A DNA stretch of 32,000 nt from Geobacter metallireducens GS-15 (GTDB taxonomy: Bacteria; Desulfobacterota; Desulfuromonadia; Geobacterales; Geobacteraceae), in the NCBI RefSeq assembly GCF_000012925.1, contig NC_007517.1:2070001-2102000 (forward strand). The letters run 5' to 3'. The stretch's first letter is position 1; each line of letters starts with the position of its first letter. The translations under genes were made by a program, and so were the position numbers. The notes below the pieces were generated by a model. It was not told where the DNA came from, searched no databases, and worked only from the letters and a program-made list of their open reading frames with translations. Positions 642 through 13,073 of the stretch are shown here, piece by piece.

Positions 642-1157
642 TTACCAGTCCTTGTATTTTGTCCCGTCGATGGCCGTACCCTCGCTCAGGGAATAGACGT
701 CATACACGTCCGAATTGTCCCACGTCGTGCTATCGGGCTCGTCCTTGTAGGAACGCAGACCCCATTCGGGCTTTTCCCCTGACGCGGGACGGTTGAAGGG
801 ATCTACGGGAATCCTCCGGAGGAACTTTTTCTTGGTCGACTTCGCTTCGCCGCCGAAATCGGTACCCGTAACCAGAACCTCCAGGGTTTCGGGATATCCT
901 GTCTCGTTCAGGATCTGTTTCCCCTTGTGGGCGTCGTCATAGGCTTTTTTGTACTCGTCTATGGCAGTGCGGATCTCCCTGAGGGATCTGCGCAGCTCAA
1001 GCTCCTTGTTCCGCTTGACGGTCATCTGGGTAAAGGGAACTATCACTGTCGCCAGTATACCGAGAATGGTTACAGTCATTATGAGCTCAATAAAGCTCAA
1101 TCCCTTACGGTTTCGTATATACCTCACTGTCGAGACACCGATAAACTTCACGCTCAC
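642..1157 (-). CDS. Second GspG-like pseudopilin (paralog, longer leader and Lys-rich insert)
   Basis: RNRKG|LSFIELIMTVTILGILATVIV has Gly-1 and Glu+5. GYPETL and IPVDPF motifs are present. The tail DVYDVYSLSEGTAIDGTKYKDW is paralogous to that of 218-622. GTG 1157 overlaps the secretin stop (GTGA). An in-frame GTG at codon 11 would give a 9-residue leader, so the start is uncertain. Confidence 0.8.
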   Translation of the reverse strand: MSVKFIGVSTVRYIRNRKGLSFIELIMTVTILGILATVIVPFTQMTVKRNKELELRRSLREIRTAIDEYKKAYDDAHKGKQILNETGYPETLEVLVTGTDFGGEAKSTKKKFLRRIPVDPFNRPASGEKPEWGLRSYKDEPDSTTWDNSDVYDVYSLSEGTAIDGTKYKDW

Positions 1158-3739
1158 TTAACTTCGACAACCGTATTGTAGGGTACGACATCAATCGGCT
1201 TATTTGCCTGGTCAGTGAAGTTCACGCTCTGGAGGCCGAGGCTGGCCGGCCCCTTGTTCTTGGCAGTGAAGGTCGCGGTGAGGAGCGAACCGGCACCGTC
1301 GATGCCTTCGGCACCGGTTCGCGCCAATGTAATGGTCACCCTTCCCTTCGCCTTATCTACCTGGGCGTTGAAGCTGGTCGGCTTGCCATCCCGATTCAGG
1401 AACGTCCCTTCGACTGCCCCCACATAATCTATGAAAATCGGATCGTAGATAAGGACAAAGGGCGCCTTAAGGAGGCCCTTGACGTCGGAGACCCTGATCT
1501 CGACCTTGAACTGGGAGCCGAGATTCACAGCTGCCGGTGCAGATATATTAAGGCTTCCGCGCACGGCTGGCGCAGGTGCTGCAGCAACAGGGACGGCAGA
1601 CGCTGCTGCCACCGTCGCGGCAGGAGCCGCAGGAGAAGCCGGTACGGGAAGGGGCGCAACCGCCTGGGATTGCGCTGTGGACGGCGGGGCAGGCTGCTGA
1701 CCTGGAGCCGGCGCCGCCGATTGTTTGACTTCCGGGGAAGTCGTTGTCTGCGGGGCTGCCGTGGGTGCCGGACTACCGGGAACGGGTTGTAGAGGCGCAA
1801 CTCTCTGGGCAGGTGCAGAGACAGAAGCAGGAACCGGTGCAGGCGATGCTGCCGGCTGCTTGACGGTTTTGGGTTGGCCGATGGCAAACTCCGGCTCAAG
1901 CTCAAATGAAGCGAATGGTTTGACAACCGAGGGATCGTCCTCCTTGCCCGACCAGAAGGAAACAAGATCAGGCTCGGGAACGGTGACGGAACGGACCAGA
2001 CGCGGAGTAATGGCGAGAATCAGTTCACGCTTCTGGTTATCGTTGGAGTTGTTGGATAGAAGCGGGCCAATGATGGGGATGTCACCCAGCAAAAAGATTT
2101 TCTGCTTTCCCTTCTGCTTGTTGTCTTCAATCAATCCACCAATGACACTTGTTTCTCCATCCTTGAGGTTCAAGACCGTATCGAGGTTACGGGTTCCGAT
2201 GGTTACGACCGTTGTCGCAGAGTCCGTTCCGCCCACTGTCTGCTTATCGATAATCGAACTGACCTCAAGTCCCAGCTTGATAGAGACCTCGTTATTGAGC
2301 ATGATGGTCGGTTCAGCGTTCAATTTGACGCCGACATCCACGTACTGGACGTTCACACTGAAGCCGCCGGTTGTGCCGGTTGTTGACGTGGTTGTAATCG
2401 GCACGCGGGTACCAACGGTGAACTTGGATTTTTCCCGATTCTTGACCCTGATTTTCGGATTGGCAAGCACCTCCGCGTTGGTAATGCTCTTGCCAAAACT
2501 GTACGAGGCACTGGGGACCGTCATAAATCCGCTGTAACCGTTCCATGAGAACGTCTGCAACAACTCACTCCCAGCTGTTCCCTGTATAGTAGTTCCTGTG
2601 CTTGAACTCACCGATGCCCTTGAAAATGTATCATTCAGGAACCCCCCGCCCGGTGTCTGGGTATTCAGGGACACGGCATATTTGCTCAGGGCGAGGCCAA
2701 AGTTCTCTATGTTCCGTTTCGACACCTCGATGACCTCAACGTCCAGCAGCACCTCGGCATCGGGAACATCATTGGCTTCGAGAATCTTGCCCGCCACATC
2801 GACCAGTTCAGACGTATCACGCACAACAATAGCATTCAACTCTTCGTTAACGTAAACCTTGCGAACCTGAAGCATCGTCCGGAGAAGGTTCACCGCCTTC
2901 TTGGCATCGAGGGTGTTCAGGAAAAACGTCTTGACGACCAGATCTTCATACTGCTTTGATTTCTCGGGTGTTTTAGGAAAGATGAGTATGGTGCTCTCGT
3001 TCAGCACTTTCTTACCGAGCTTGTTCATGTTGGTCAACAGGTCGAGGGCCTGCTGGAAATTTGCATTTTCCAGATAAATCGTTACTTTTTGGTCCTTGAT
3101 TGTGTCATCAAAGATAAAGTTGATTCCGGAAAGTTGGGTAACTATGTAGAAGACGTCTTTCAGGTTTGCGTCTTTGAATTTCAGGGTAATTGGCTTTGTG
3201 GACTTCAGATTCAGCTCATACCCTTCCAGTCGGGTTTTTTTTGTGCTCAACAGACGCTCAAGGGCTTCCTTTGCCTCTTTGTTTTGCCCGTCGAGGTCAA
3301 GTGCCTTGCGATAGGCCTGGAGTGCTTCTCTTGGTTTGTTACCCCGTTCAAAATCCTGTCCTTCTTTGAAATAGGTTCTCGAATTCTTTTGGCGAACGAG
3401 CTTGTCGCTCTCCTGTTTCGCCCGTTGAAGCGACGGATCGAGGGCAACTGCTGCCTGGTACTCGACAAGCGCTGCATCGTAATTCTTGAGGGCAATGAAC
3501 TCATCTCCCTTGCTCAGATGCCGAAGCGCCGCTTCCTCGCTCGTCTTGAGGAGCCTCATGCGGTATTCGTTCATCTCCGGATTGGATGCGACCGCCTCGG
3601 AATACTTGATGACAGCCTCGTCGAGCTTTCCTTCCCGCTCAAGCCGCTCTCCCTTGCTGAATGCAGTTAGTCCGGCCCCACACCCTGACAGGAAAGCAAA
3701 AAAGGACAAGAAAGCTATTATCTTGAAGATGATCCTCAT
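1154..3739 (-). CDS. Secretin (GspD/PilQ family) lipoprotein with N-terminal TPR module, C-terminal Pro/Ala-rich linker and cohesin-like domain
   Basis: 861 aa. Lipobox FLSGC (Cys20). About 150 aa of TPR-like repeats (EAVIKYSEAVASNPEMNEY, YDAALVEYQAAVALDPS, REALQAYRKALDLDGQN). Two secretin-N type domains. Secretin core ending GDIPIIGPLLSN...RELILAITPRLV. Then a 106-aa P/A/S/T/Q linker and a 134-aa cohesin-like end. AAGGAG SD lies 8 nt upstream of ATG 3739. Confidence 0.9.
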   Translation of the reverse strand: MRIIFKIIAFLSFFAFLSGCGAGLTAFSKGERLEREGKLDEAVIKYSEAVASNPEMNEYRMRLLKTSEEAALRHLSKGDEFIALKNYDAALVEYQAAVALDPSLQRAKQESDKLVRQKNSRTYFKEGQDFERGNKPREALQAYRKALDLDGQNKEAKEALERLLSTKKTRLEGYELNLKSTKPITLKFKDANLKDVFYIVTQLSGINFIFDDTIKDQKVTIYLENANFQQALDLLTNMNKLGKKVLNESTILIFPKTPEKSKQYEDLVVKTFFLNTLDAKKAVNLLRTMLQVRKVYVNEELNAIVVRDTSELVDVAGKILEANDVPDAEVLLDVEVIEVSKRNIENFGLALSKYAVSLNTQTPGGGFLNDTFSRASVSSSTGTTIQGTAGSELLQTFSWNGYSGFMTVPSASYSFGKSITNAEVLANPKIRVKNREKSKFTVGTRVPITTTSTTGTTGGFSVNVQYVDVGVKLNAEPTIMLNNEVSIKLGLEVSSIIDKQTVGGTDSATTVVTIGTRNLDTVLNLKDGETSVIGGLIEDNKQKGKQKIFLLGDIPIIGPLLSNNSNDNQKRELILAITPRLVRSVTVPEPDLVSFWSGKEDDPSVVKPFASFELEPEFAIGQPKTVKQPAASPAPVPASVSAPAQRVAPLQPVPGSPAPTAAPQTTTSPEVKQSAAPAPGQQPAPPSTAQSQAVAPLPVPASPAAPAATVAAASAVPVAAAPAPAVRGSLNISAPAAVNLGSQFKVEIRVSDVKGLLKAPFVLIYDPIFIDYVGAVEGTFLNRDGKPTSFNAQVDKAKGRVTITLARTGAEGIDGAGSLLTATFTAKNKGPASLGLQSVNFTDQANKPIDVVPYNTVVEVK

Positions 3740-3767: not shown

Positions 3768-4382
3768 TCATCGTATCTGGCCGGCGAGAGGCCGGTTCTC
3801 GACAAGGGGAATCACCATCTCGCTTCCGTCGGTAAGAGAGCGGATTGACAGCGCCTCATCGGTGATGGTTGTCGCTTCGTAGTTCCCGGCAATTTTGTCG
3901 CCCTGGCGTACCAGGATAATCTCCTTGTCACGGGCAAGGAAGATGGTTTTGTGGTTATCCTTCTTGAGAAACCCCAGGAAGGTGAATTTTGCCATGTCCC
4001 GCACCACCTGCGGCGGTTGCGGTGCGACCGGCATCGGGGGCGGCAGCGCCACTGGAGCTGCAGGCGGAGGAGGAAGCGGAACGGCCTTCGGCAAGGTCAA
4101 CGGCAACGGACGCGATTGCTGCGTTTCGCCGCGGAAAATAGGACGGAATATATTTCGTCGAAAACCGGCAAACCGGTTTGAAGTACATTCAAGAAGATCA
4201 AGCCTGAGTTTTCTATCGTCGGTTGCAGCCGCTCCGTTAGGTTTTGGGGAACGGCTGACCTTCGTCGGGGGGGATGTCACCTTCGATACCGTCTGCTGAC
4301 ACGGCATTCTGATGTAGCTCACGATGGCGGCGACCACGAGCACCACAAGGAGAATGGAAAGAATGAGCCTCTGACGGTTCAT
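3768..4382 (-). CDS. PilP/GspC-HR-like bitopic protein with proline-rich spacer
   Basis: ATG 4382 overlaps the upstream stop (ATGA). The product starts MNRQRLILSILLVVLVVAAIV (one TM). Pro-rich PLPPPPAAPVALPPPMPVAPQPP follows. The C-terminal beta-domain FLGFLKKDNHKTIFLARDKEIILVRQGDKIAGNYE resembles PilP. The track ORF extension to 4496 overlaps the previous gene. Confidence 0.6.
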   Translation of the reverse strand: MNRQRLILSILLVVLVVAAIVSYIRMPCQQTVSKVTSPPTKVSRSPKPNGAAATDDRKLRLDLLECTSNRFAGFRRNIFRPIFRGETQQSRPLPLTLPKAVPLPPPPAAPVALPPPMPVAPQPPQVVRDMAKFTFLGFLKKDNHKTIFLARDKEIILVRQGDKIAGNYEATTITDEALSIRSLTDGSEMVIPLVENRPLAGQIR

Positions 4383-4924
4383 TTCCCCTCCGGACGCAGA
4401 TAGGCGGAAAGTTGCATCTTGAGAGAAACCGCCTCCTCGATCATGCTGGTGTTTGAGAGGGAAATCGAGTCTATCGTCAAAAGACCTCCGTGACACTGAA
4501 GATCGGAAATGAAACTCTTTATGCCGGCGTATTGGCCATCGAGACTCATTGTCACACCATAGACGACCAGATTTGCCTCCTTCTGGGCCTCGGGTTTATA
4601 GGTGATTCCCTTGACCTTCAACCCATTGTTGGCAGCTATTTCAAAAACTTCCATCATCTGCCGGGTAAAATCCCGCTTCAGAGGTATACGCTCCTGAAAC
4701 GCTGCAAGGTCGGCTGTCCCCTGACGATAAATCGTCCCTAGGTCCCCACCACCCGTCACGAGACGACGCTTCTCAGTCCATTCATTCTGGAGCTTGACGA
4801 GTTTCGGCTCCTGAACCAGCTGGGAGTACATCACGATCCCCATATTCACCAGAATGAGAACGAGGATCACGGCAATTGACATCCGCTTGGCCTTAAGGAC
4901 CTCCAGAAACTGATTTCTGGTCAT
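4379..4924 (-). CDS. PilO/GspM-like bitopic inner-membrane protein
   Basis: ATG 4924 overlaps the upstream stop (ATGA). MTRNQFLEVLKAKRMSIAVILVLILVNMGIV gives a short cytoplasmic N-terminus and a single TM. A coiled-coil-like segment and a C-terminal alpha/beta region follow. Its position between the PilN-like and PilP-like genes fits PilO. Confidence 0.65.
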   Translation of the reverse strand: MTRNQFLEVLKAKRMSIAVILVLILVNMGIVMYSQLVQEPKLVKLQNEWTEKRRLVTGGGDLGTIYRQGTADLAAFQERIPLKRDFTRQMMEVFEIAANNGLKVKGITYKPEAQKEANLVVYGVTMSLDGQYAGIKSFISDLQCHGGLLTIDSISLSNTSMIEEAVSLKMQLSAYLRPEGK

Positions 4925-5460
4925 AGGAAATCCACCTTGCACGTAACGGTGAATCCCACGCCCCTCTGATCAGTTCCCTCTTTGACTTCTGTCTGGCTCT
5001 GGAGAAACACGTCGGAAAACCGGGGGGCTCCTTCGAGATTTTCCACAAAGGTCCTCAAATTGCGAAATTCCTTCGCAGTTCCAGCGAGCGTCAGGGTCCC
5101 CTCTTTGAGTTTCGGCTCTATGGATGAAAGAGTAACGCCATCGGGCACTACAGACTCCAACTGATCGAGCAGAAGGAGCCAATTAAGCCCTCTTTTCTTG
5201 AGGATTCCATTGGCGACTGAAATTTTCTTTATGATTCCCTGATACTCCTGCTCTGTCACTCCCTTGGCCGATGTCGCAAATCGTTCCTGAAGTTTCGCCA
5301 GTTCACCTTCAAGTTGCTTTGCCTGACCGGCGTTCGTGGCGACCCCTTTGACAACGAAGAACAGGACCAGCACCAGCAGGGCGACAGCAGCGGCCAATGC
5401 AGCATTCAATTTCCGCGTATCAATAAAATAGCGAGTCGAAAGATTGATCTTCAGATCCAT
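4921..5460 (-). CDS. PilN-like bitopic inner-membrane protein
   Basis: ATG 5460 overlaps the PilM-like stop by 1 nt (TGATG). The N-terminus MDLKINLSTRYF resembles the conserved PilN INLLP motif that binds PilM. TM AALAAAVALLVLVLFFVV and a periplasmic domain follow. The track extension to 5589 overlaps the upstream gene. Confidence 0.7.
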   Translation of the reverse strand: MDLKINLSTRYFIDTRKLNAALAAAVALLVLVLFFVVKGVATNAGQAKQLEGELAKLQERFATSAKGVTEQEYQGIIKKISVANGILKKRGLNWLLLLDQLESVVPDGVTLSSIEPKLKEGTLTLAGTAKEFRNLRTFVENLEGAPRFSDVFLQSQTEVKEGTDQRGVGFTVTCKVDFL

Positions 5461-6389
5461 CAGAGATTCCTCGTTGCAGCACCAAGGGCAGCTGCCAAGG
5501 AAGCCAATGGCACCCCACCACCCCCCACGGAAGAGGCCGGATTGCCAACGAACGTATCCGGCAAAAGCATGAAGGGCTCCAGACCACACGCTTCGGTAAT
5601 GACTGTCCTGAACAACTCACCATCCCCGGCGGGCGCCAGACAGAAGGCTTCGCGAAACTCCCGCCCAGGATTCTTGTCACGATAAAAAAGGAGCGAATTA
5701 TTGGTTTCCATGAAAACACGGTTCATATCAAGATCAGAGCCCGGCAGTTCCTTTGCCCGGTAGAACTCAAGTACATCTTGATGAAATATAAGTATGCTCA
5801 ACACATTATCATGACATGCAACAAACAGGGAACTTTCGCTCATGGCTATCCGCGGAGAGAAAAGCCGATAGAGGTTAAATGAGGTGAAATCGATGTGAGC
5901 CGGCTGAATTCCCGCTTCGGCCAGCAGTTCTTCGTACTGGCTGACCACTTGCCGTGCAATGATTGCCACAAGAACCGATATCTCGCCGTTCTCTTTCTCT
6001 CGCAGCAGCTGATAATCAAGATGCATTTCGTTTACGTCGAAAGGAAGACTCTTTTTGAGCTTCCACCGGATAATGTCATATCCCTCGTCACGATTCTTAA
6101 AGCGAGTCTCCAGGTCAAGGATGACCACCCGCCCGCAGGCGTCGGGCAGTGACACCGAGACAAGGCCGGTACGGTGAAGAAGCTTCAGGTACGCCTCTTT
6201 CACCTCCTTCACGAAAAGAGCCGGCTCCACAACGTTCGGCTCCCGATGAACGAGTCTAACGGTTCCGGCCGGGAACTGGGCGGTTTCACAGGCGAGCAGC
6301 TTCGGACGGTTCTTGCTTCCGCCAACCGCTGCCATCCTGACCCCATGCTGGGTTATCTCCATCCCCACTGCATTACGGGAAAAAAACAT
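5460..6389 (-). CDS. PilM-like (or GspL cytoplasmic-domain-like) actin-fold assembly protein
   Basis: 309 aa, soluble. N-terminal VGMEITQHGVRMAAVGG is typical of PilM-type actin/HSP70-fold proteins. It sits directly upstream of the PilN-like gene and is coupled to it. AAAGG SD lies 5 nt before ATG 6389. Confidence 0.7.
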   Translation of the reverse strand: MFFSRNAVGMEITQHGVRMAAVGGSKNRPKLLACETAQFPAGTVRLVHREPNVVEPALFVKEVKEAYLKLLHRTGLVSVSLPDACGRVVILDLETRFKNRDEGYDIIRWKLKKSLPFDVNEMHLDYQLLREKENGEISVLVAIIARQVVSQYEELLAEAGIQPAHIDFTSFNLYRLFSPRIAMSESSLFVACHDNVLSILIFHQDVLEFYRAKELPGSDLDMNRVFMETNNSLLFYRDKNPGREFREAFCLAPAGDGELFRTVITEACGLEPFMLLPDTFVGNPASSVGGGGVPLASLAAALGAATRNL

Positions 6390-6421
6390 GAAAGCCTTTC
6401 ATCGATAAAGTGGACCAAGCG

Positions 6422-8143
6422 CTATTCAACAAAGGTGACGCGATTGATTTCCCGCAGAGACGTCTCTCCGGCCAAGACCTTTTCCACAGCCGACTCGCGA
6501 AGGAAAACCGTTCCCGCTTCCCGGGCGGCCACCTTGAGTTGGGCAGCCGGCGTCTTAGACATGATCAGTTCACGGATGTGGTCGTTGAGATCAAGCAGCT
6601 CAATTATGGCGGAGCGACCGCGATAACCAGTGCCGTTACACTCGTCGCACCCGCGCGCATCGAAAAAGGTTACGCTGCGACACTGCTCCGGGTCAAGTCC
6701 TGATTCAATGAGTACCGAATCAGGATGCACAGTCGGCAACTTGCAGTGGGAGCAAAGCTTGCGCACCAATCGCTGGGCCATGACGCAGTTCAGGCAGGAA
6801 ACGAAGTTGTAGGGGTCGATACCCATGTGAATAAAACGACCGAGAACGTCAAACACGTTATTGGCGTGTACCGTGGTGAATACCAAGTGTCCCGTCAGTG
6901 CGGATTGCACGGCGATCTGAGCAGTTTCAGGATCGCGGATCTCCCCCACCATGATCTTGTCAGGGTCGTGCCGAAGGATTGAGCGCAATCCCCGGGCAAA
7001 GGTCAGCCCCTTCTTCTCGTTGACCGGAATCTGGACAATCCCCCGCAAGGCATACTCAACAGGATCCTCGATGGTGATGATCTTTTCCTCACCGGTATGA
7101 ATCTCGGTAAGAGCAGCATACAGGGTCGTGGTCTTGCCTGACCCGGTTGGTCCGGTTACTAGCACCATCCCGTAGGGCTCGCGGACCTTTTTCCGCAGTC
7201 TTTTCATCTCCCGCGGGTTCATGCCAAGGGTTTCAAGGGTCAGCCCCTTGAGATCGGAGGCGATGCTCTCCTTGTCGAGGATACGGATAACAGCGTCTTC
7301 TCCGAAGGCGCTCGGCATGATAGAAACGCGGAAATCGATGGCCTTGTCGGCAATCCGGACCTTGAAACGTCCATCCTGGGGAATGCGCCGCTCTGAAATG
7401 TCGAGCTCGCTCATGACCTTGAGGCGTGAGATGATCGGTGCCTGGAAATGGACGTCGAGTGTCTCCGTTGCTCGGTAGAGAACCCCATCGATCCGGTATT
7501 TGATGACAACCCCTTCCAACGCCGTTTCGATATGGATATCGCTTGCCCTTCGCGTCAGGGCATCCATGACGGTAGAGTTGACCAGCTTAATGATCGGGCT
7601 CGTATCGGCGGAGATCTTCTCCATGGAGAGGATCTCCTCACCCGTCTCGTTCTCCCGCACGAGTTGGAGCATGAAGTCCTCGGAAACTTCCTTGAGGACC
7701 CGGCTCGTGGCCTCTCCTTTTTTCAGGATGGCGGAAATCGCCGATTCAGTGGCCAATTTAATGATAAGAGGCCGATCGAGGAGCAGTTCAAGCTCGTCAA
7801 GTTTTATGACATCGGTGGGATCAGAGATGAGGATGACAAGGCTGTTGTCCTGCTCCTCCAAGGGAACAAATCGGAACCGGTAAATGGCATCGGGAGGAAG
7901 CGCGTTGAGAATTGCCTCGTTGGGGCGCAGTCCCCGGGCATCGACGTACTCCAAGCCGAATTGCTCCGCCAGGGACTCCGCCAGGGACTCTTCGGTAATG
8001 AAGCCTTCCTCGACACATATCTCCCCGAAACGCTTTGCGGTCGCCTTCAGTCTTTCGACGACGAAGGGAAGGTCATCGGTTCTCAATGACCCGCGTTCGA
8101 TAAGAATTTCGCCGATATTCTTCCTTTTAAAGACATGCTTCAT
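6422..8143 (-). CDS. gspE: GspE/PilB-family secretion ATPase with N-terminal MshEN-like domain
   Basis: 573 aa. Walker [10 protein letters not shown]. The conserved VGEIRD and TGHLVFTTVHAN boxes are present, as is the tetracysteine zinc motif CSHC...CDEC. The N-terminal tandem 24-residue repeats resemble the MshEN/T2SSE_N domain. Confidence 0.95.
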   Translation of the reverse strand: MKHVFKRKNIGEILIERGSLRTDDLPFVVERLKATAKRFGEICVEEGFITEESLAESLAEQFGLEYVDARGLRPNEAILNALPPDAIYRFRFVPLEEQDNSLVILISDPTDVIKLDELELLLDRPLIIKLATESAISAILKKGEATSRVLKEVSEDFMLQLVRENETGEEILSMEKISADTSPIIKLVNSTVMDALTRRASDIHIETALEGVVIKYRIDGVLYRATETLDVHFQAPIISRLKVMSELDISERRIPQDGRFKVRIADKAIDFRVSIMPSAFGEDAVIRILDKESIASDLKGLTLETLGMNPREMKRLRKKVREPYGMVLVTGPTGSGKTTTLYAALTEIHTGEEKIITIEDPVEYALRGIVQIPVNEKKGLTFARGLRSILRHDPDKIMVGEIRDPETAQIAVQSALTGHLVFTTVHANNVFDVLGRFIHMGIDPYNFVSCLNCVMAQRLVRKLCSHCKLPTVHPDSVLIESGLDPEQCRSVTFFDARGCDECNGTGYRGRSAIIELLDLNDHIRELIMSKTPAAQLKVAAREAGTVFLRESAVEKVLAGETSLREINRVTFVE

Positions 8144-8195
8144 AATGGTTTGATCCGATCAGGCCCTGTGCCCGCAATTAGTCTCCGACCCTTGA

Positions 8196-9404
8196 TTATC
8201 CAACTGTCCCAGCGATCTTGAATACCGGAAGATACATGGTAATGATGATGACGCCGACCACCAGCCCCATGACAATCATAATGGCGGGTTCGATGGCAGT
8301 GGTAAGGAGATGAAGCCGTGCATCGATATCACTTTCAAAATATTCCGAGATGTCGCTCAACATCTCCTCCAGAGATCCGGTCGTCTCTCCTACCCCGAGC
8401 ATGCGGAGCGCCAGAGGTGGCATGAATTTTACCGACTCGATGGCATTGGAGAGGCTCATCCCCTCCTCCACCTTAACAACCGCCTGGAGAAGCCTTCTTT
8501 CGAGAACCACATTATTAAGCGTGCCGACCGACATCTTCAGCGACTCCACGATAGGAATACCGCTGCCGATGACCGTTGCGAGAGTGCGGGTAAAGGAAGC
8601 AACGGCAAACTTCGAGAAAACCTCACCAATAAAAGGGAGGCGAATCCTGAGATCGTCAACCCAGAAGCGCCCCCGCTCGGTTGCGGCCCATCGACGCAGG
8701 GCCATGACAACGGCACCGATCAATGCAATAACAAAGAGAATGTAGTGTTTGAGTGTTGAGGAGAACGAGATCAAAATCCTTGTGGGGAGCGGCAATTGCG
8801 AACCGGCATCGGCATAAACCTGGCTGAAGGTCGGGACCACGTACACCAGCAGGAAAGCAATCGCGATGGTTGCCACGGTAACAAGAATCGATGGATAGAC
8901 GAGGGCTGAGACGAATCTTTTCCGCACTTCCTCTACCCTCTTCAGAAAAGCGATGTAACGCCTGATGGTAAGGGGAAGGTCTCCTGTCCGTTCGCCGGCC
9001 CTGACGGAAGCAACATAGAGATGGGGAAACGCCTTAGGATACTTTTCCAAGGCATCGGAAAGAGCCATGCCTCCTTTGACGTTCTCGCGGACTTCCTTGA
9101 GAATATCCGCGAGTTGCCCTCGATCAAAGCGCTCTAGAATGGTATCCAGTGCTTGTATGATTGGTAGGCCGGCCTTGATGAGAACCAGCAGTTCCTGGTT
9201 CAAGGTCAGAAGGGTCTTGTTGTCCACCCTCCTATTGCGTCCGCCCCTTTCCCACAAAAACTGCAACGGCTTTTTTTTTACTTCAAAGACAAAAAAACCC
9301 TGTTCCTCCAGACTGACGCGAAGGATTTCGGGATTTACCGCTTCAAATTCCTTGACAATGATTCTGCCTTCTGTGGAGCCAAGCTTGCAAGTGTAGAGAG
9401 CCAT
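8196..9404 (-). CDS. gspF: GspF/PilC-family inner-membrane platform protein
   Basis: 402 aa. Duplicated T2SSF-type cytoplasmic domains are separated by hydrophobic segments. The sequence ends in a final TM, IEPAIMIVMGLVVGVIIITMYLPVFKI. ATG start at 9404. Confidence 0.95.
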   Translation of the reverse strand: MALYTCKLGSTEGRIIVKEFEAVNPEILRVSLEEQGFFVFEVKKKPLQFLWERGGRNRRVDNKTLLTLNQELLVLIKAGLPIIQALDTILERFDRGQLADILKEVRENVKGGMALSDALEKYPKAFPHLYVASVRAGERTGDLPLTIRRYIAFLKRVEEVRKRFVSALVYPSILVTVATIAIAFLLVYVVPTFSQVYADAGSQLPLPTRILISFSSTLKHYILFVIALIGAVVMALRRWAATERGRFWVDDLRIRLPFIGEVFSKFAVASFTRTLATVIGSGIPIVESLKMSVGTLNNVVLERRLLQAVVKVEEGMSLSNAIESVKFMPPLALRMLGVGETTGSLEEMLSDISEYFESDIDARLHLLTTAIEPAIMIVMGLVVGVIIITMYLPVFKIAGTVG

Positions 9405-9505: not shown

Positions 9506-9934
9506 TCATTTTTCGTGACATGATAAACAGATTTTCGACAGGGGAAGACGCAGATGATAACGCTCCTGTTCCTGATTGCCAGGATTCTTAACGTGCATGG
9601 CATGGCAGGTGATGGCACAGGTAATGGTCCCGTCCTCAGCCAAAGGGAGACTTTCTCGGTTCATCTCCGGTTTCATGCCGATGCCGTGGCCGAACTCCAT
9701 GCCGTGACACTGCCTGCAGAGAGCCACCTGGTTGGTGAGGAGCTGTCTTTTGGTTGCATTAGCAACAAAAAAACTTCCCAGTTTTTCCTTGGGGAGTACA
9801 TGGCAGACCCCACAACTCTCGGGAGAGGTGTGGGGATTGACTGCGCCATCCGGAACCTCCGGCGCGGCAATCCCTGTTCCCGAGAGAACAAGCACCGCAA
9901 CGCAAGCCCCAATTCCCTGCTTCACGAATGACAT
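9506..9934 (-). CDS. Small periplasmic/secreted c-type cytochrome, 3 CXXCH plus 1 CX3CH
   Basis: ATG 9934 has a GAGGTG SD 8 nt upstream. Signal peptide MSFVKQGIGACVAVLVLSGTGIA. Heme motifs are CGVCH, CRQCH and CLSCH, plus CAITCH. The track ORF extension to 10003 overlaps the upstream cytochrome gene. Confidence 0.85.
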   Translation of the reverse strand: MSFVKQGIGACVAVLVLSGTGIAAPEVPDGAVNPHTSPESCGVCHVLPKEKLGSFFVANATKRQLLTNQVALCRQCHGMEFGHGIGMKPEMNRESLPLAEDGTITCAITCHAMHVKNPGNQEQERYHLRLPLSKICLSCHEK

Positions 9935-9954
9935 CGCCTGGCACCTCTGTGGGT

Positions 9955-11058
9955 CTAGTAAACCTTGGGATTGTGATCGACACCATGACAGGAAAGGTAG
10001 CATTCGCCCCGGAATGTCGAAATACCCTTCTCTACAAACTTGAGTTGCCCCTGAGAGTTTGGTGACACTACTGATTTATTGAAGGTAATCAGATACTTAT
10101 TATCCGGACTCCCGTGGGAGCTGTGACAGGTATAGCATGAAGTTCCTGAGTCGGCACCGTTTCCACCTCCTCTTCCTTGAATGTGCAAGGCATGGTAACG
10201 GAAGCTCTCGTTTCCGAGAATGCTCGTACGATCGTGACAACGGTAGCAGAGAGCATAGGTATAGGGTGTTTCCGACTGCTTGTCGCTTGTCGAATAATGG
10301 TCCACGAGGATATGTTCATACTGCGAACCATGGGGCCCTCGTGGGGACTCTGGATTCTCGCTCCCATGGCAGTCACCGCATGAAATTGTAGCTACTTCAC
10401 CCGCATTAATTTTCTTTTCTTTGTACGGTTTCAGAAGGCTGATGACCGCCGTATTCTTCCCCTCCCCCTCCACGGGATGAAAGGAAGGATTGGTCAGTGC
10501 AAACTCCATCCGTTTGTTTACTTGCCTCCCTGGCAGGTTGGCACTTTCACCGTGACACTTGTAACAAAGTTCATATTCCTTGTTTACGGACGAAATTACG
10601 TTACCCACCCGCTTTCCCCTGATTCCTGCGAACTTGTTCTCGCTGGTAACGTAATGGGGATTATGGCAATCAACGCACTCGGCGTGGCGTGGGATACGGG
10701 AATCCGTCTCAGGGAGAATCTCGTTGCTTTGGTGAATCCCTCGGGCATCAAACGCCGGATGGTGATAAGTTTTGAGGAACTCCGCTTCAATATTTTTTCT
10801 ATTGCTTCCGGCGGGAGCAAAATTTTTCGGCATATTTTTATATGATTGCTTCAACCTTGAAGGGTCACCATGACAGATTATACAAGTTTCAGGACCACCG
10901 CCCGACTTGAAATTGAAGCTCAGGTGGCAGGTGGAACAACCGGTGGACACCTTATTGGTATCAAGGTGAACTGCATCTTTTGGATAGGATGCAGCGAAAG
11001 GCGCAGGTGACATAAACAACAAAAACGCCAATGTAAGTATAAGATTTTTTATCGCCAT
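9955..11058 (-). CDS. Multiheme c-type cytochrome, 7 CXXCH plus 1 CX3CH
   Basis: 367 aa. Signal peptide MAIKNLILTLAFLLFMSPAPFAA. Motifs are CSTCH, CIICH, CVDCH, CYKCH, CGDCH, CYRCH and CYTCH, plus a terminal CYLSCH. Confidence 0.9.
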   Translation of the reverse strand: MAIKNLILTLAFLLFMSPAPFAASYPKDAVHLDTNKVSTGCSTCHLSFNFKSGGGPETCIICHGDPSRLKQSYKNMPKNFAPAGSNRKNIEAEFLKTYHHPAFDARGIHQSNEILPETDSRIPRHAECVDCHNPHYVTSENKFAGIRGKRVGNVISSVNKEYELCYKCHGESANLPGRQVNKRMEFALTNPSFHPVEGEGKNTAVISLLKPYKEKKINAGEVATISCGDCHGSENPESPRGPHGSQYEHILVDHYSTSDKQSETPYTYALCYRCHDRTSILGNESFRYHALHIQGRGGGNGADSGTSCYTCHSSHGSPDNKYLITFNKSVVSPNSQGQLKFVEKGISTFRGECYLSCHGVDHNPKVY

Positions 11059-11068
11059 TGTTGCTTAC

Positions 11069-11833
11069 TCATGGATTATTCGTGAAATTGTGACAGTTAG
11101 TGCACACCGAGTCGTGGGCATTTGTTGCGGACGTTCCGTCAAGAACCCAGAAAGGCGTGGAAGGATCGTTATACTGCGTCTGATGGGGATCATGACAGGT
11201 TATGCACTGCATCCTGTTTTCTCTATCCAGACGAATTTTAGCATTGGTTGGAAGTTGGTACGAATTACCAGGTCCCTCCAAGACATTGAGCCGATCACGG
11301 ACAGAGGCGTTATACACAAATGAAACCGGATGGTGGGAATTGGTTATCTTTGTTCGGTTAAAAACATGGGTCCCCGACATAACCGTATTGACGTTGTTGT
11401 TCACCTCAATGGCGTCACCGTTCAAAACGGCTCCCAGTGCAGTGACGCCGTCGTGGCAACTTAGACAGAGGCGCGATGAACCATTGGGCTCAGACTTGTA
11501 ATCGCTTGAGGTCTTCGCCGCAGGGTCGGTGTGGATGGCAAGAGTGTTGGATGAATAATGGCCGAAGGTCTGGGTGGTATCGTTACGGTTCCAAAGGACC
11601 GTTTGAGGTTTGGCGTTGTGGGGGGTGTGGCAGAAAATGCAGATTTGCTTGCCCCTTGGATCGGAAGCGTTCGTAGCTTTGTAGTTCACGCCGGTATTGC
11701 TGAACGAGAGGTTATGTTTGTTGCCGCCTTCCGTGAACTTGGGGCCTTGAGCACCAAAACCGGCGCCTGTATCGAAAAAAACAACAATCAGAAACAATAA
11801 AACCGGAAAAAGGTTGTCTGTTTTAACCATCAT
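11069..11833 (-). CDS. Tetraheme c-type cytochrome (doubled-CXXCH style)
   Basis: 254 aa. Hydrophobic signal LFPVLLFLIVVFF. Motifs are CIFCHTPH, CLSCHDG, CITCHDPH and CTNCH. ATG 11833 overlaps the NHL gene stop (ATGA). Confidence 0.9.
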   Translation of the reverse strand: MMVKTDNLFPVLLFLIVVFFDTGAGFGAQGPKFTEGGNKHNLSFSNTGVNYKATNASDPRGKQICIFCHTPHNAKPQTVLWNRNDTTQTFGHYSSNTLAIHTDPAAKTSSDYKSEPNGSSRLCLSCHDGVTALGAVLNGDAIEVNNNVNTVMSGTHVFNRTKITNSHHPVSFVYNASVRDRLNVLEGPGNSYQLPTNAKIRLDRENRMQCITCHDPHQTQYNDPSTPFWVLDGTSATNAHDSVCTNCHNFTNNP

Positions 11834-12891
11834 GGCGTGCCTTGCCTCAGGTACTCAAATATCTGGATACGTTTGTTATACGTGTCGGCAACAAAGATCC
11901 GGTCATGCTTGTCTATGAATAATCCGCTCGGGAGATAGAACTCGCCCGGCCCGTTACCAGGCTTTCCCACGAAAAGGAGGAGTTTCCCTTCCTGATCAAA
12001 TATCTGAAAATTATCGAATGAGGCATCCACAGCATAAACATGAAGTTCGCTGTCCACGGCCACCCCCCGCGGTCGCGCGAATGAACCGGGGGCATCGCCG
12101 ACTTCGCCGAAACTCCTAAGGAAATTTCCATTACGATCATATTTTTTTATAGTGAAGTTCATGGAATCAGTTACGTAGGTGTTTCCTTCCCTATCCACCG
12201 CTACGTTGGACGGCAAGCTGAGTGGCTCGCCACTCCCGTCGCGGGGAAACTCCCCACGATAATGTCCATCCTTGTCAAACTTCTTCAATTTATGTGCCAA
12301 CACATCAACCACATAAACATCACCGTTACCGGCAACAGCAATCCCGGCCGGCCTTTTGAACGTGGTCTCTCCGTTGCCAAACTCCCGAAGGTACTCTCCC
12401 TGGCGCGAAAAAACGTATACCCTGGCATTGATTGAATCAGACACCAGCACATTACCGTTCGAATCAAAGGCCACTCCAACGGGACTTGCGAGCGGCTCGT
12501 CCCCGGCTTGGCGGATGTAGAAAACTTCACGATTATTCAGATCGTAGCACTGTACTACCCGTGTAGAGGAATCCGCAACGCAGAGGAGGGAGCCACCGTC
12601 ACTGGCTAATCCGTATGGCGTCATCAGGGGTATCATCACCCGCTCTTCCCCGGTAACGATTTGCCAAAGGCGCCCAACCTTACTCTGAATCGGCACAATC
12701 TGTTCTGGTCCGGTTATTTCGCGGAGGAATCGGATTCGGGGCGGATTAGGCGGCGGAGGCCAGACAAGGTCAACTGCAGGGTCATGGAGAGCAATGGGGC
12801 TGGTGCCTACTCCAGCACAACCCAGAAGGATGAGACCGAGCAAGAGATATAATAAGTACCGTACAGAACACGAATGAAGAACAGACTTCAT
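11830..12891 (-). CDS. NHL-repeat six-bladed beta-propeller lipoprotein
   Basis: ATG 12891 overlaps the stop of the small upstream ORF (ATGA). It gives the lipoprotein signal MKSVLHSCSVRYLLYLLLGLILLGC. There are six repeats of the type P.GVAVD..GNVYV.D..N.RI..FD: PVGVAFDSNGNVLVSD, PAGIAVAGNGDVYVVD, PSNVAVDREGNTYVTD, PRGVAVDSELHVYAVD, PSGLFIDKHDRIFVAD, plus a degenerate first blade. Confidence 0.85.
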   Translation of the reverse strand: MKSVLHSCSVRYLLYLLLGLILLGCAGVGTSPIALHDPAVDLVWPPPPNPPRIRFLREITGPEQIVPIQSKVGRLWQIVTGEERVMIPLMTPYGLASDGGSLLCVADSSTRVVQCYDLNNREVFYIRQAGDEPLASPVGVAFDSNGNVLVSDSINARVYVFSRQGEYLREFGNGETTFKRPAGIAVAGNGDVYVVDVLAHKLKKFDKDGHYRGEFPRDGSGEPLSLPSNVAVDREGNTYVTDSMNFTIKKYDRNGNFLRSFGEVGDAPGSFARPRGVAVDSELHVYAVDASFDNFQIFDQEGKLLLFVGKPGNGPGEFYLPSGLFIDKHDRIFVADTYNKRIQIFEYLRQGTP

Positions 12892-13073
12892 GCCAGCATC
12901 ATCCCCACAATCCAGATGGTAAAAAAGACGGCCATCGCTCCCCCCCACCCTGCAGCGGCCTTACCGTTCATTGTCCCGCGTTTTGGGAATGCCTTAACAA
13001 TAAGAACCATAGTCGAGGCTATCCATCCCCACAAACCAACCTGACAGATAACTGCCCAGCCATCATGCAGCAT
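12888..13073 (-). CDS. Small two-TM membrane protein (61 aa), function unknown
   Basis: Two hydrophobic helices, WAVICQVGLWGWIASTMVLIV and GWGGAMAVFFTIWIVGMMLA. An AGGGGGGA SD-like run lies upstream of ATG 13073. It overlaps the GT2 stop by 11 nt and the NHL start by 4 nt, so it is embedded in a coupled chain. I recognise no family. Confidence 0.45.
   Translation of the reverse strand: MLHDGWAVICQVGLWGWIASTMVLIVKAFPKRGTMNGKAAAGWGGAMAVFFTIWIVGMMLA

Follow-up and report, generated by a model that had tools for sequence, protein, structure and literature searches.

The secretin PulQ of Geobacter metallireducens GS-15 ends in a true cohesin, identified by both profile and fold and joined to the rest of the protein by a long Pro/Ala-rich tether; this module may bind a dockerin. 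The gene lies on the minus strand of a 32-kb window, by which we mean the whole stretch of DNA analysed. The translation of the open reading frame is identical to ABB32088.1 / WP_011365881.1 / Q39UI6 from the same strain, which GenBank and UniProt both name 'type II secretion system secretin lipoprotein PulQ'.

Domain organization of PulQ

PulQ begins with the lipobox, followed by the TPR domain, the N0 and N1 domains and the secretin core; after the core come a brief conserved stretch, the Pro/Ala-rich tether with some 105-125 disordered residues, and the C-terminal cohesin. The annotated features, with the evidence for each in brackets, are as follows.

642-1157, minus strand: GspG-like pseudopilin gene, downstream of pulQ (ORF, N_methyl motif)
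1154-3739, minus strand: pulQ, complete secretin lipoprotein gene of 861 aa, stop codon at 1154-1156 (ORF list)
1157-1558, minus strand: C-terminal cohesin module, residues 728-861 (Pfam Cohesin, AlphaFold2, Foldseek, homologs)
1559-1876, minus strand: Pro/Ala-rich flexible tether, residues 622-727, 106 aa (composition, predicted disorder)
1880-1990, minus strand: conserved post-core segment, residues 584-620, ...FWSGKEDDPS...EPEF (conservation; helix 590-596 in the model)
1991-2482, minus strand: secretin core, residues 420-583, last motif RELILAITPRLV (Pfam Secretin PF00263)
2699-3190, minus strand: periplasmic N0 (STN) and N1 (Secretin_N), residues ~184-347 (Pfam)
3230-3670, minus strand: N-terminal TPR domain of eight helices, residues ~24-170 (Pfam TPR_2, TPR_11, TPR_1)
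3680-3739, minus strand: signal peptide with lipobox, residues 1-20, ...FLSGC (Cys20 the predicted lipidation site)
3768-9404, minus strand: genes for GspF, GspE, PilM, PilN, PilO and an unannotated Pro-rich, putatively PilP/GspC-like protein, upstream of pulQ (Pfam, synteny)

From its sequence, PulQ appears to be a lipoprotein that would be lipidated at Cys20. This cysteine is invariant in a 50-sequence alignment (A2), and 96 of the 119 PulQ homologs have a lipobox-like motif. The TPR region that follows is modelled with an AlphaFold2 pLDDT of ~89-97 (helices H26-H169) and gives weak NCBIfam matches to TraC (1.9e-9) and Tgl (0.059). Pfam matches were found to STN (33.8 bits, residues 206-256) and to Secretin_N (31.9 bits, residues 269-328), together with a weak match of the N0 region to GspD N0. 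The core matches PF00263 with 131.3 bits (E=3.6e-38), and PulQ thus has both the core and the N0/N1 domains that define the secretin superfamily. Its nearest solved chains belong to PilQ (9sh1, 4av2) and GspD (6i1x, 6hcg), with E values of 1e-28 to 1e-18. The AlphaFold2 model of the full-length protein has a pTM of 0.31.

Post-core segment and tether

Residues 584-620 are gap-free in the alignment with a majority-residue conservation of 0.65-0.75, and seven positions in this segment (F595, W596, S597, G598, E600, D601 and P603) are invariant among the 50 sequences. A Pfam scan gave no family match for the segment, and the short helix at residues 590-596 is the only one placed after the core in the full-length model. 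In pilotin-dependent secretins, the C-terminal S-domain binds the pilotin by a helix, alpha-12, with an Ala-Phe motif. The PulQ segment may be a minimal remnant of an S-domain that packs on the barrel.

The first-pass annotation had placed a tether at residues 622-727 (nt 1559-1876) and a compact domain at residues 728-861 (nt 1157-1558), and this mapping is exact. Its description of the linker as almost entirely P, A, S, T, V and Q agrees with our composition scan, in which these residues make up 0.85-1.0 of 20-residue windows in the linker as against 0.3-0.5 in the flanks. Proline and alanine account for 54% of the linker (Ala 29%, Pro 25%), followed by Val (11%), Gln (9%), Ser (9%) and Thr (7%). 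The GC content of the linker DNA rises locally to 0.64-0.67, and no tandem DNA repeats were found in it. The limits of the linker hold by composition but can be refined, as the disordered stretch runs over ~598/621-724 by the AlphaFold2 model and the conservation profile, preceded by the conserved segment 584-620. Residues 598-724 have a pLDDT of 30-38 and no secondary structure. In the homolog alignment, conservation of the linker is 0.18-0.36 with 22-57% gaps, and its length varies from 73 to 195 residues. The whole tail after the core amounts to 279 residues in PulQ, compared to 3-64 residues in solved secretins.

The C-terminal cohesin module

The motifs quoted earlier, RELILAITPRLV for the end of the core and KVEIRVSDVKGLLKAPFVLIYDPIFIDYVGAVEGTF...VVEVK for the C-terminal domain, were both found in the PulQ translation, and the proposal of a cohesin-like domain is borne out by the profile and the fold. 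The C-terminal part of PulQ matches the Pfam Cohesin family PF00963 with 53.1 bits (E=5e-14), well over the cut-off of 24.1. Five C-terminal slices of 134-361 aa scored 50.4-53.9 bits, with the exact slice 728-861 at 53.9, and the match was lost only when the entire 861-aa protein was used as query. Two full-length orthologs (P0002 and P0016) do give the PF00963 match, and the A1 profile matches cohesins in the PDB.

The model of the domain (pLDDT 93.6, pTM 0.84) is all-beta without helices, and the best fifty matches in a Foldseek search of the PDB are all cohesins, the first being 2xdh (E=4.6e-10, TM 0.79/0.83, rmsd 2.2 A). TM scores to cellulosomal type I and non-cellulosomal cohesins are 0.72-0.83, and the sequence identity of the domain to solved cohesins is only 9-20%. 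Target TM scores are 0.78-0.83 to type-I and non-cellulosomal cohesins, as against 0.62-0.66 to the larger type-II modules, and the modelled compact, helix-free domain fits the former better than the latter. PulQ does not resemble a cellulosomal scaffoldin, in which several cohesins stand in tandem, usually together with a CBM or an anchoring dockerin or SLH domain; it contains a single cohesin and no match to a CBM, SLH or dockerin domain. Cohesins as a family bind dockerin modules specifically, usually in a Ca2+-dependent manner.

A search with the cohesin domain alone returned only ten short fragments, all from the same secretins. In an exhaustive profile search, the nearest relatives outside the secretins were multi-cohesin proteins with a type IX sorting tail, a tail by which they are taken to be surface proteins.

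Conservation of the fusion

The cohesin is found at the exact C-terminus in all 119 full-length homologs. A continuous reading frame is present in the finished genomes of G. metallireducens GS-15 (3.99 Mb), G. pickeringii, Geotalea uraniireducens and Geomonas RF6, and the same frame recurs in more than one hundred independent metagenome assemblies. A frameshift, mis-assembly or gene-calling error that joined the secretin to an unrelated downstream gene might be suspected from the unusual architecture and from the GC-rich, low-complexity linker, and a break at nt ~1880-1970 had been named as the place to look for one. The frame runs on through this region, and its continuity and its recurrence in 119 of 119 homologs from independent assemblies show that the fusion is not a product of chance, a frameshift or an assembly join; the probability that it is an artefact is practically nil.

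Eight positions of the cohesin are invariant and fifteen nearly so among domains that are 38-84% identical to that of PulQ. Conservation in the module is 0.51-0.67, nearly gap-free, and approaches the level of the TPR domain, and the fusion is kept in family members with an overall identity of ~43-51%. These patterns suggest that the cohesin module is under selection.

Gene neighbourhood and search for dockerins

The GTG start of the pseudopilin gene overlaps the stop codon of pulQ (GTGA), and the order of these two genes is the same in four orthologous clusters (L001-L004). The genes upstream gave Pfam matches to T2SSF, T2SSE, PilM_2, PilN and PilO and their synteny is also conserved in the four clusters, while the assignment of the Pro-rich protein as PilP/GspC-like is suggested by its position and sequence. 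The cluster contains the GspE, GspF and GspG-like pseudopilin genes expected of a type II secretion system (T2SSE 439.9 bits, T2SSF 177 bits, two N_methyl pseudopilins), in an order kept in L001-L004. In the syntenic clusters examined it always adjoins ftsE-ftsX-M23 peptidase-ctpA, a set of genes for remodelling of the cell wall. The Pul system with its PulG/OxpG/TklG pseudopilins is required for the secretion of OmpB and is also needed for Fe(III)-oxide reduction (PMC3543383), and OmpB is reported to be surface-associated (PMC5566968).

A motif scan of six frames found no dockerin in the 32-kb window, and none was found in the conserved neighbourhood of the four orthologous clusters. The sole dockerin motif match in the window and L001-L004 (six frames) occurs in L004, in a subtilase that ends in a dockerin-like module and is encoded 6.5 kb from the pulQ ortholog; the Pfam score of this dockerin, 17.7, is below the family threshold of 22.9. 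A homology search with this dockerin alone returned no candidates. Relatives of the subtilase-dockerin protein found in a scan of a genome collection do not exceed 45% identity and belong to Desulfobulbaceae, Zixiibacteriota, Ignavibacteria and other groups, with none from a named Geobacter, and their alignments mostly end before the dockerin. The protein was rejected as a conserved partner as it is sporadic and its relatives in other phyla mostly lack the tail. A stand-alone cohesin adjacent to it is 23-26% identical to the PulQ cohesin, which gives no hint of a shared specificity.

The first-pass annotation had also named the cytochromes and the NHL protein encoded nearby as candidates for complex prediction with the domain; they have no dockerin matches and are absent from L001-L004, and we set them aside. 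FN3+Dockerin proteins are given for G. sulfurreducens and G. soli in supplementary file 3 of PMC6199725. The text of that paper implied Geobacter FN3 genes with a dockerin plus laccase and cupredoxin, but its table separates the FN3+Dockerin proteins from the laccase+cupredoxin+FN3 proteins, and the idea of a dockerin on OmpB was dropped for lack of support. OmpB, the only reported cargo, has no dockerin annotation in that source, which counts against the docking of cargo by the PulQ cohesin.

Comparison with known systems

PulQ shares the secretin core, the N0/N1 domains and the adjacent GspE/GspF/GspG-like genes with GspD/PulD (PDB 5WQ7, 6HCG, 5ZDH). GspD/PulD use the extension past the barrel to bind a protein in the periplasm (PMC6532946), and PulQ is predicted to do the same. 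The tail of PulQ is much longer (279 residues, compared to ~50-64 in GspD/PulD) and consists of a disordered tether and a folded cohesin, whereas that of GspD/PulD is a helix-turn-helix S-domain bound by a pilotin. PulQ also scores below the cut-off of the NCBIfam GspD equivalog TIGR02517 (161.5 versus 351.35 bits), and its inner-membrane platform is PilM/N/O-like instead of the GspL/M/C of type II secretion systems.

The closest solved sequences are those of PilQ (PDB 9SH1, 4AV2, 6VE2, 3JC8), at 102 bits, which shares with PulQ the associated PilM/N/O-type genes and the appending of accessory domains to the secretin. PulQ differs from PilQ in its GspG-like pseudopilin neighbours and in the OmpB secretion reported for its system (PMC3543383), and it is below the cut-off of the PilQ subfamily TIGR02515 (153.7 versus 284.35 bits). 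In PilQ, the accessory (AMIN) domains are N-terminal and the chains stop 3-9 residues after the core, so the earlier statement that secretins end in a pilotin-binding S-domain is valid for one class of type II secretins but not for PilQ-type secretins.

Liposecretins such as HxcQ of P. aeruginosa are self-piloting lipoprotein secretins. They share with PulQ an N-terminal lipobox cysteine and perhaps the absence of a recognisable pilotin-binding S-domain, whereas PulQ has in addition an N-terminal TPR domain and a C-terminal tether with cohesin. To our knowledge, neither the TPR domain nor the tether and cohesin have been described as a feature of liposecretins.

The OmpA hinge and the Pro-rich region of TonB are Pro/Ala-rich periplasmic hinges or spacers. 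Like them, the PulQ tether is a low-complexity spacer between a part embedded in the envelope and a binding domain, which in PulQ is probably periplasmic. The tether greatly exceeds the OmpA hinge in length, and the likeness is one of composition alone and not of homology. The cohesin itself belongs to the family of nine-strand beta-sandwiches formed by cellulosomal type I (1OHZ, 1ANU, 1AOH) and non-cellulosomal (2XDH, 2JH2, 2VO8) cohesins. As in A. fulgidus (2XDH) and C. perfringens (2JH2, 2VO8), the module occurs singly and in an organism that does not degrade cellulose, but unlike the solved cohesins it is fused to a Gram-negative outer-membrane channel and is probably periplasmic.

Location and function of the cohesin

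In solved secretins, the beta-lip and an amphipathic helical loop are the only parts inserted in the outer membrane; the C-terminal region is found on the outside of the barrel, in the periplasm (PMC6532946). By analogy, the PulQ cohesins most probably form a ring that extends into the periplasm. A channel of 12-15 subunits would then carry 12-15 cohesins on flexible tethers reaching into the periplasm, each docking a dockerin-type or dockerin-like module of another periplasmic protein. The likeliest target would be folded cargo awaiting export, for example FN3-dockerin or protease-dockerin proteins, which this 'fly-casting' would concentrate at the channel mouth; a structural partner of the machine would be a less likely target. 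Capture of a dockerin-bearing cargo or partner by tethered periplasmic cohesins is quite possible, and we propose it tentatively. It is favoured by the occurrence of dockerin-bearing proteins of a secreted type in the Geobacter lineage, while the dockerin-free window and conserved neighbourhood of L001-L004, and the surface proteins that are the nearest cohesin relatives, speak against it. The narrower version, in which the cohesin is a built-in cargo receptor and a dockerin or dockerin-like tag marks the proteins exported by the Pul system, is unlikely.

The same lack of a dockerin gene in the conserved neighbourhood would suit a structural or assembly role, in which the cohesin would attach to some part of the machine or envelope and stabilise, position or space the secretin; AMIN domains have such a role for PilQ, and GspB/OutB has one for OutD. 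Candidate ligands would be the TPR domain of its own or a neighbouring subunit, the PilP/GspC-like connector, peptidoglycan or another outer-membrane lipoprotein. Such a role is in keeping with the single cohesin per subunit, strictly conserved along with the TPR-lipoprotein N-terminus, and with the constant proximity of the cell-wall remodelling genes, and PMC9239104 provides a precedent for accessory anchoring of a secretin to peptidoglycan and the inner membrane. However, a long tether of variable length suits searching and capture better than a fixed brace, and the match is specific to cohesins and not to a peptidoglycan-binding family, so that we regard this role as rather unlikely, though with a real chance.

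Display of the tail outside the cell, where the cohesin would anchor secreted dockerin-bearing proteins next to the channel, gains from the fact that the cohesin-dockerin pairs known from experiments all work outside the cell (PMC9012536), a point that also counts against periplasmic capture. The type IX sorting tail of the nearest non-secretin relatives and the surface association of OmpB, a cargo of the Pul system, point the same way. Against this, display conflicts with the periplasmic C-terminal region of solved secretins, and the earlier suggestion that a surface-displayed protein is captured at the channel becomes less likely for the same reason. The model places no membrane-crossing element after the core, where residues 598-724 are disordered, and 12-15 tails passing through the gated lumen would be expected to block the channel. 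We consider surface display improbable. An evolutionary relic, gained once by fusion and persisting with no current specific function, would agree with our finding no partner in the searches and no published phenotype for the domain; the retention of the cohesin in every one of the 119 homologs, with its invariant positions maintained while the linker drifts freely, and in family members only 43-51% identical overall, makes this very unlikely.

Novelty and significance

The secretin-cohesin fusion is only partly new, as automatic annotation has given orthologs the name 'cohesin domain-containing protein' and they have precomputed PF00963 matches. PulQ itself has no such label because the Pfam match vanishes in a scan of the complete sequence, and similar fusions may be under-annotated elsewhere for the same reason. 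A literature search for secretin plus cohesin found no paper on the fusion, and several of its matches were to the word 'secreting'. Geobacter secretion proteins may already be included in the 2009 survey by Peer and co-workers, which covered cohesins and dockerins of the non-cellulosomal kind.

No general secretion signal is known by which type II secretion systems choose their folded cargo, and a secretin that brings its own long-tethered docking module points to a concrete way of recognising or recruiting cargo, one open to genetic tests. If the cohesin is indeed a cargo receptor, the dockerin or dockerin-like tag would serve type II secretion as a modular and transferable export signal. 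If cohesin-dockerin pairs work in a Gram-negative periplasm, the role of this module pair would extend beyond the extracellular one known at present. In Geobacter, where the Pul system matters for extracellular electron transfer, the pair could also serve engineered secretion as an orthogonal tag.

Domain organization of PulQ

The secretin gene in this window of Geobacter metallireducens GS-15 and the parts of its product that are discussed here are as follows.

1154-3739, minus strand: pulQ open reading frame, encoding 861 amino acids
3230-3739, minus strand: PulQ residues 1-170, lipobox with Cys20, then a TPR domain of eight helices, predicted with confidence
1559-1876, minus strand: linker, residues 622-727 (29% Ala, 25% Pro)
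1157-1558, minus strand: C-terminal domain, residues 728-861, a cohesin

The encoded protein has the same sequence as ABB32088.1, WP_011365881.1 and UniProt Q39UI6, entered as 'type II secretion system secretin lipoprotein PulQ'. Pfam families found in the protein are TPR repeats, STN/N0, Secretin_N and the secretin core (residues 420-583, 131 bits), while the NCBIfam models for GspD (161.5, cut-off 351) and PilQ (153.7, cut-off 284) both scored below their cut-offs. Weak NCBIfam matches of the N-terminal region were found to two lipoproteins of Myxococcus, TraC (1.9e-9) and Tgl (0.059), the second of which serves PilQ as its TPR pilotin. This end of PulQ has the look of a pilotin-like module joined to a secretin, which would make the protein a self-piloting liposecretin. 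As Cys20 of the lipobox is invariant among the aligned homologs and the TPR domain is confident in the predicted model, PulQ probably arrives at the outer membrane in the form of a lipoprotein, without needing an S-domain or a pilotin. A single substitution between strains was observed at residue 367 (window approximately 2639-2641), which is Phe in GS-15 (GGGFLND) and Val in the RCH3 ortholog P0001 (GGGVLND).

Solved secretins end 3-64 residues past the motif equivalent to RELILAITPRLV, whereas PulQ runs on for 279. The first part of this tail (residues 584-620) is conserved, with an invariant FWSG.ED.P motif and a single short helix at 590-596 according to the alignment and the model. The boundaries given for linker and domain in the first-pass annotation, which had proposed a Pro/Ala-rich tether and a cohesin-like module, were found to be exact in both residues and nucleotides. 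The linker shows a majority-residue conservation of 0.18-0.36 with 22-57% gaps in the homolog alignment, varies from 73 to 195 residues in length among homologs, and no tandem repeats were found in its DNA. In the full-length AlphaFold2 model residues 598-724 have a pLDDT of 30-38 and lack secondary structure; residues 622-727 behave like a flexible tether. The domain that follows, residues 728-861, is conserved (0.51-0.67) with almost no gaps and is confidently folded in the same full-length model (pLDDT 88-96).

Identity of the C-terminal domain

Sequence profile and fold, the two checks proposed in the first-pass annotation, both identify the C-terminal domain as a cohesin, as that annotation had suggested by eye. 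Residues 701-861 match the Pfam Cohesin family with 53.1 bits (E=5e-14; cut-off 24.1), and four other C-terminal slices gave 50.4-53.9 bits. A profile built from 31 domains of the family matched 28 PDB sequences, 26 of them cohesins, the best being 3l8q (1.5e-5) and 2xdh (5.4e-5). Modelled alone, the domain is all-beta (pLDDT 93.6, pTM 0.84) and the 50 best Foldseek matches in the PDB were all cohesins. The top match was 2xdh, a non-cellulosomal cohesin of Archaeoglobus fulgidus (E=4.6e-10, TM 0.79/0.83, rmsd 2.2 A), and cohesins of C. perfringens and type-I cellulosomal ones came next. Insertions of the type-II cohesins are absent from the model, and TM scores normalised to the target were 0.78-0.83 for compact type-I or non-cellulosomal cohesins compared with 0.62-0.66 for type II.

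The Pfam match is lost only when the complete 861-residue protein is scanned, and slices of up to 361 residues retain 50-54 bits; the speed or bias filters of HMMER are most likely responsible. Public names of PulQ omit 'cohesin' because of this missing full-length match. PF00963 is likewise missing from the precomputed Pfam list of P0001, which differs from PulQ by one residue, whereas it is listed for nearly all other homologs, several of which NCBI calls 'cohesin domain-containing protein'. Its absence from the PulQ record is not a biological difference. The secretin-cohesin architecture is thus already visible in automated annotation and the bare observation is not new. No paper discussing the fusion was found in the literature searched, and a 2009 survey of non-cellulosomal cohesins may list it. 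In functional terms, PulQ represents an uncharacterised variant of a machine component that is already known.

Conservation of the fusion

The 120 best homologs (49-100% identity) stem from Geobacter, Geotalea, Geomonas, Geomobilimonas and many metagenome contigs, with several taken from finished genomes. All but one (P0024, a partial sequence) are full length, and in all 119 full-length homologs the cohesin lies at the exact C-terminus, typically ending in ...PYNTVVEVK. When 1.84 billion representatives were searched exhaustively with the cohesin profile, 16,125 proteins bearing a cohesin were found (E<=0.001). Among the 149 best matches, about 30 are single-copy tails of the PulQ secretin family, including full-length members just 43-51% identical to PulQ. 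The fusion is therefore real, and a frameshift or assembly join separating secretin from domain, raised earlier as a possible objection, fails because the same arrangement recurs in homologs and distant family members.

The top-scoring non-secretin matches to the profile (P0131-P0139) carry two to five tandem cohesins each. Of the ones that were scanned, the majority also contain a CarboxypepD_reg domain together with a C-terminal sorting domain for type IX secretion. They are surface proteins resembling scaffoldins, presumably from Bacteroidota or phyla related to it.

Gene neighbourhood

Two further features of the window bear on the surroundings of pulQ.

3768-4496, minus strand: 242-residue ORF between pilO and pulQ, with a TM helix, a linker rich in Pro and, at the C-terminus, a small beta domain
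9506-12948, minus strand: one gene for an NHL-repeat beta-propeller protein and three for multihaem cytochromes, located between GT2 and gspF

Upstream of pulQ lie genes for GspF, GspE, PilM, PilN, PilO and an unannotated Pro-rich protein, and downstream two GspG-like pseudopilins. These genes belong to the Geobacteraceae 'Pul' system, whose pseudopilins are PulG, OxpG and TklG. A passage of PMC3543383 citing Mehta et al. 2006 states that secretion of the multicopper oxidase OmpB requires it, and PulQ and PulE have been linked with electrode biofilms (PMC6013743). Four orthologous clusters from related genomes (L001-L004) share the order lon, HU, GT2, GspF, GspE, PilM, PilN, PilO, unknown, PulQ, two pseudopilins, FtsE, FtsX, M23 peptidase and CtpA. 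In all four, lon, HU and the GT2 glycosyltransferase precede the Pul cluster, and ftsE, ftsX, the gene of an M23 (EnvC-like) peptidase and ctpA come after it. This tight, conserved association with genes for cell division and cell-wall remodelling was noted in PMC3543383 as well.

The TGA stop of pulQ and the GTG start of the adjoining pseudopilin ORF share bases (GTGA, window 1154-1157), an overlap suggestive of translational coupling. Two codons further downstream there is another in-frame GTG, which makes the true pseudopilin start uncertain. The 242-residue ORF gave no match in a Pfam scan and is PilP/GspC-like by position. Orthologs have 188-215 residues and the ORF overlaps pilO, so its translation probably begins at the internal MNRQRL.

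The NHL protein and the cytochromes, one of which matches MtrC/MtrF domain II/IV, are missing from the otherwise syntenic L001-L004 and are thus a lineage-specific insertion of G. metallireducens, which speaks against them as conserved partners of the cohesin, for which the first-pass annotation had named them as candidates. By analogy with MtrC/OmcA of Shewanella, one may speculate that these proteins are cargo of the Pul system.

Search for a dockerin partner

No dockerin-like duplicated Ca-loop motif was found in any frame of the window, no window protein matched a dockerin family in Pfam, and no dockerin gene lies within the shared gene order of L001-L004. A literature lead pointing to OmpB-like proteins with dockerins was not borne out for OmpB, as the supplement keeps FN3+Dockerin proteins apart from laccase/cupredoxin/FN3 proteins. 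Because of its FN3+Dockerin entries (G. sulfurreducens WP_014551707.1 and G. soli WP_039644186.1), we conclude that Geobacter encodes dockerin-annotated proteins, which are presumably exported.

One cluster contains an additional trio.

L004:19177-22657: I9-S8 subtilase with a dockerin-like end, Big_1 Ig-like protein and stand-alone cohesin protein

This trio is a small non-cellulosomal cohesin-dockerin set approximately 6.5-9 kb from pulQ. The subtilase, 6.5 kb away, ends in a dockerin-like module (GDVDGDGKVKVND...DALLILRKTVGL) scoring below the Dockerin_1 cut-off (17.7 bits against 22.9). It is sporadic and its relatives occur in other phyla, which suggests horizontal acquisition. The neighbouring cohesin is only distantly related to that of PulQ.

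Location and possible role of the cohesin

In secretins only the beta-lip and an amphipathic helical loop lie in the outer membrane, and the remainder is periplasmic, including the C-terminal S-domain bound by lipoprotein pilotins of the periplasmic face (PMC6532946). No membrane-crossing element is apparent after the PulQ core in the predicted model, and the solved secretins matched to PulQ have 12-15 subunits. By extrapolation from these secretins, a PulQ multimer would present a ring of cohesins in the periplasm on lines of about 105-125 residues.

We tentatively favour a role in which these cohesins would capture a dockerin-type partner in the periplasm, most plausibly cargo that would be concentrated at the channel entrance. 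That the domain serves instead as a structural or assembly brace is possible and appears rather unlikely, and its display on the cell surface is improbable as this conflicts with secretin topology. The conservation of the domain contradicts an evolutionary relic, to which we give very little credence, and an artefactual fusion is refuted, leaving it a negligible probability. If the cohesin of PulQ is a cargo receptor, type II secretion would gain a defined, modular recognition signal.
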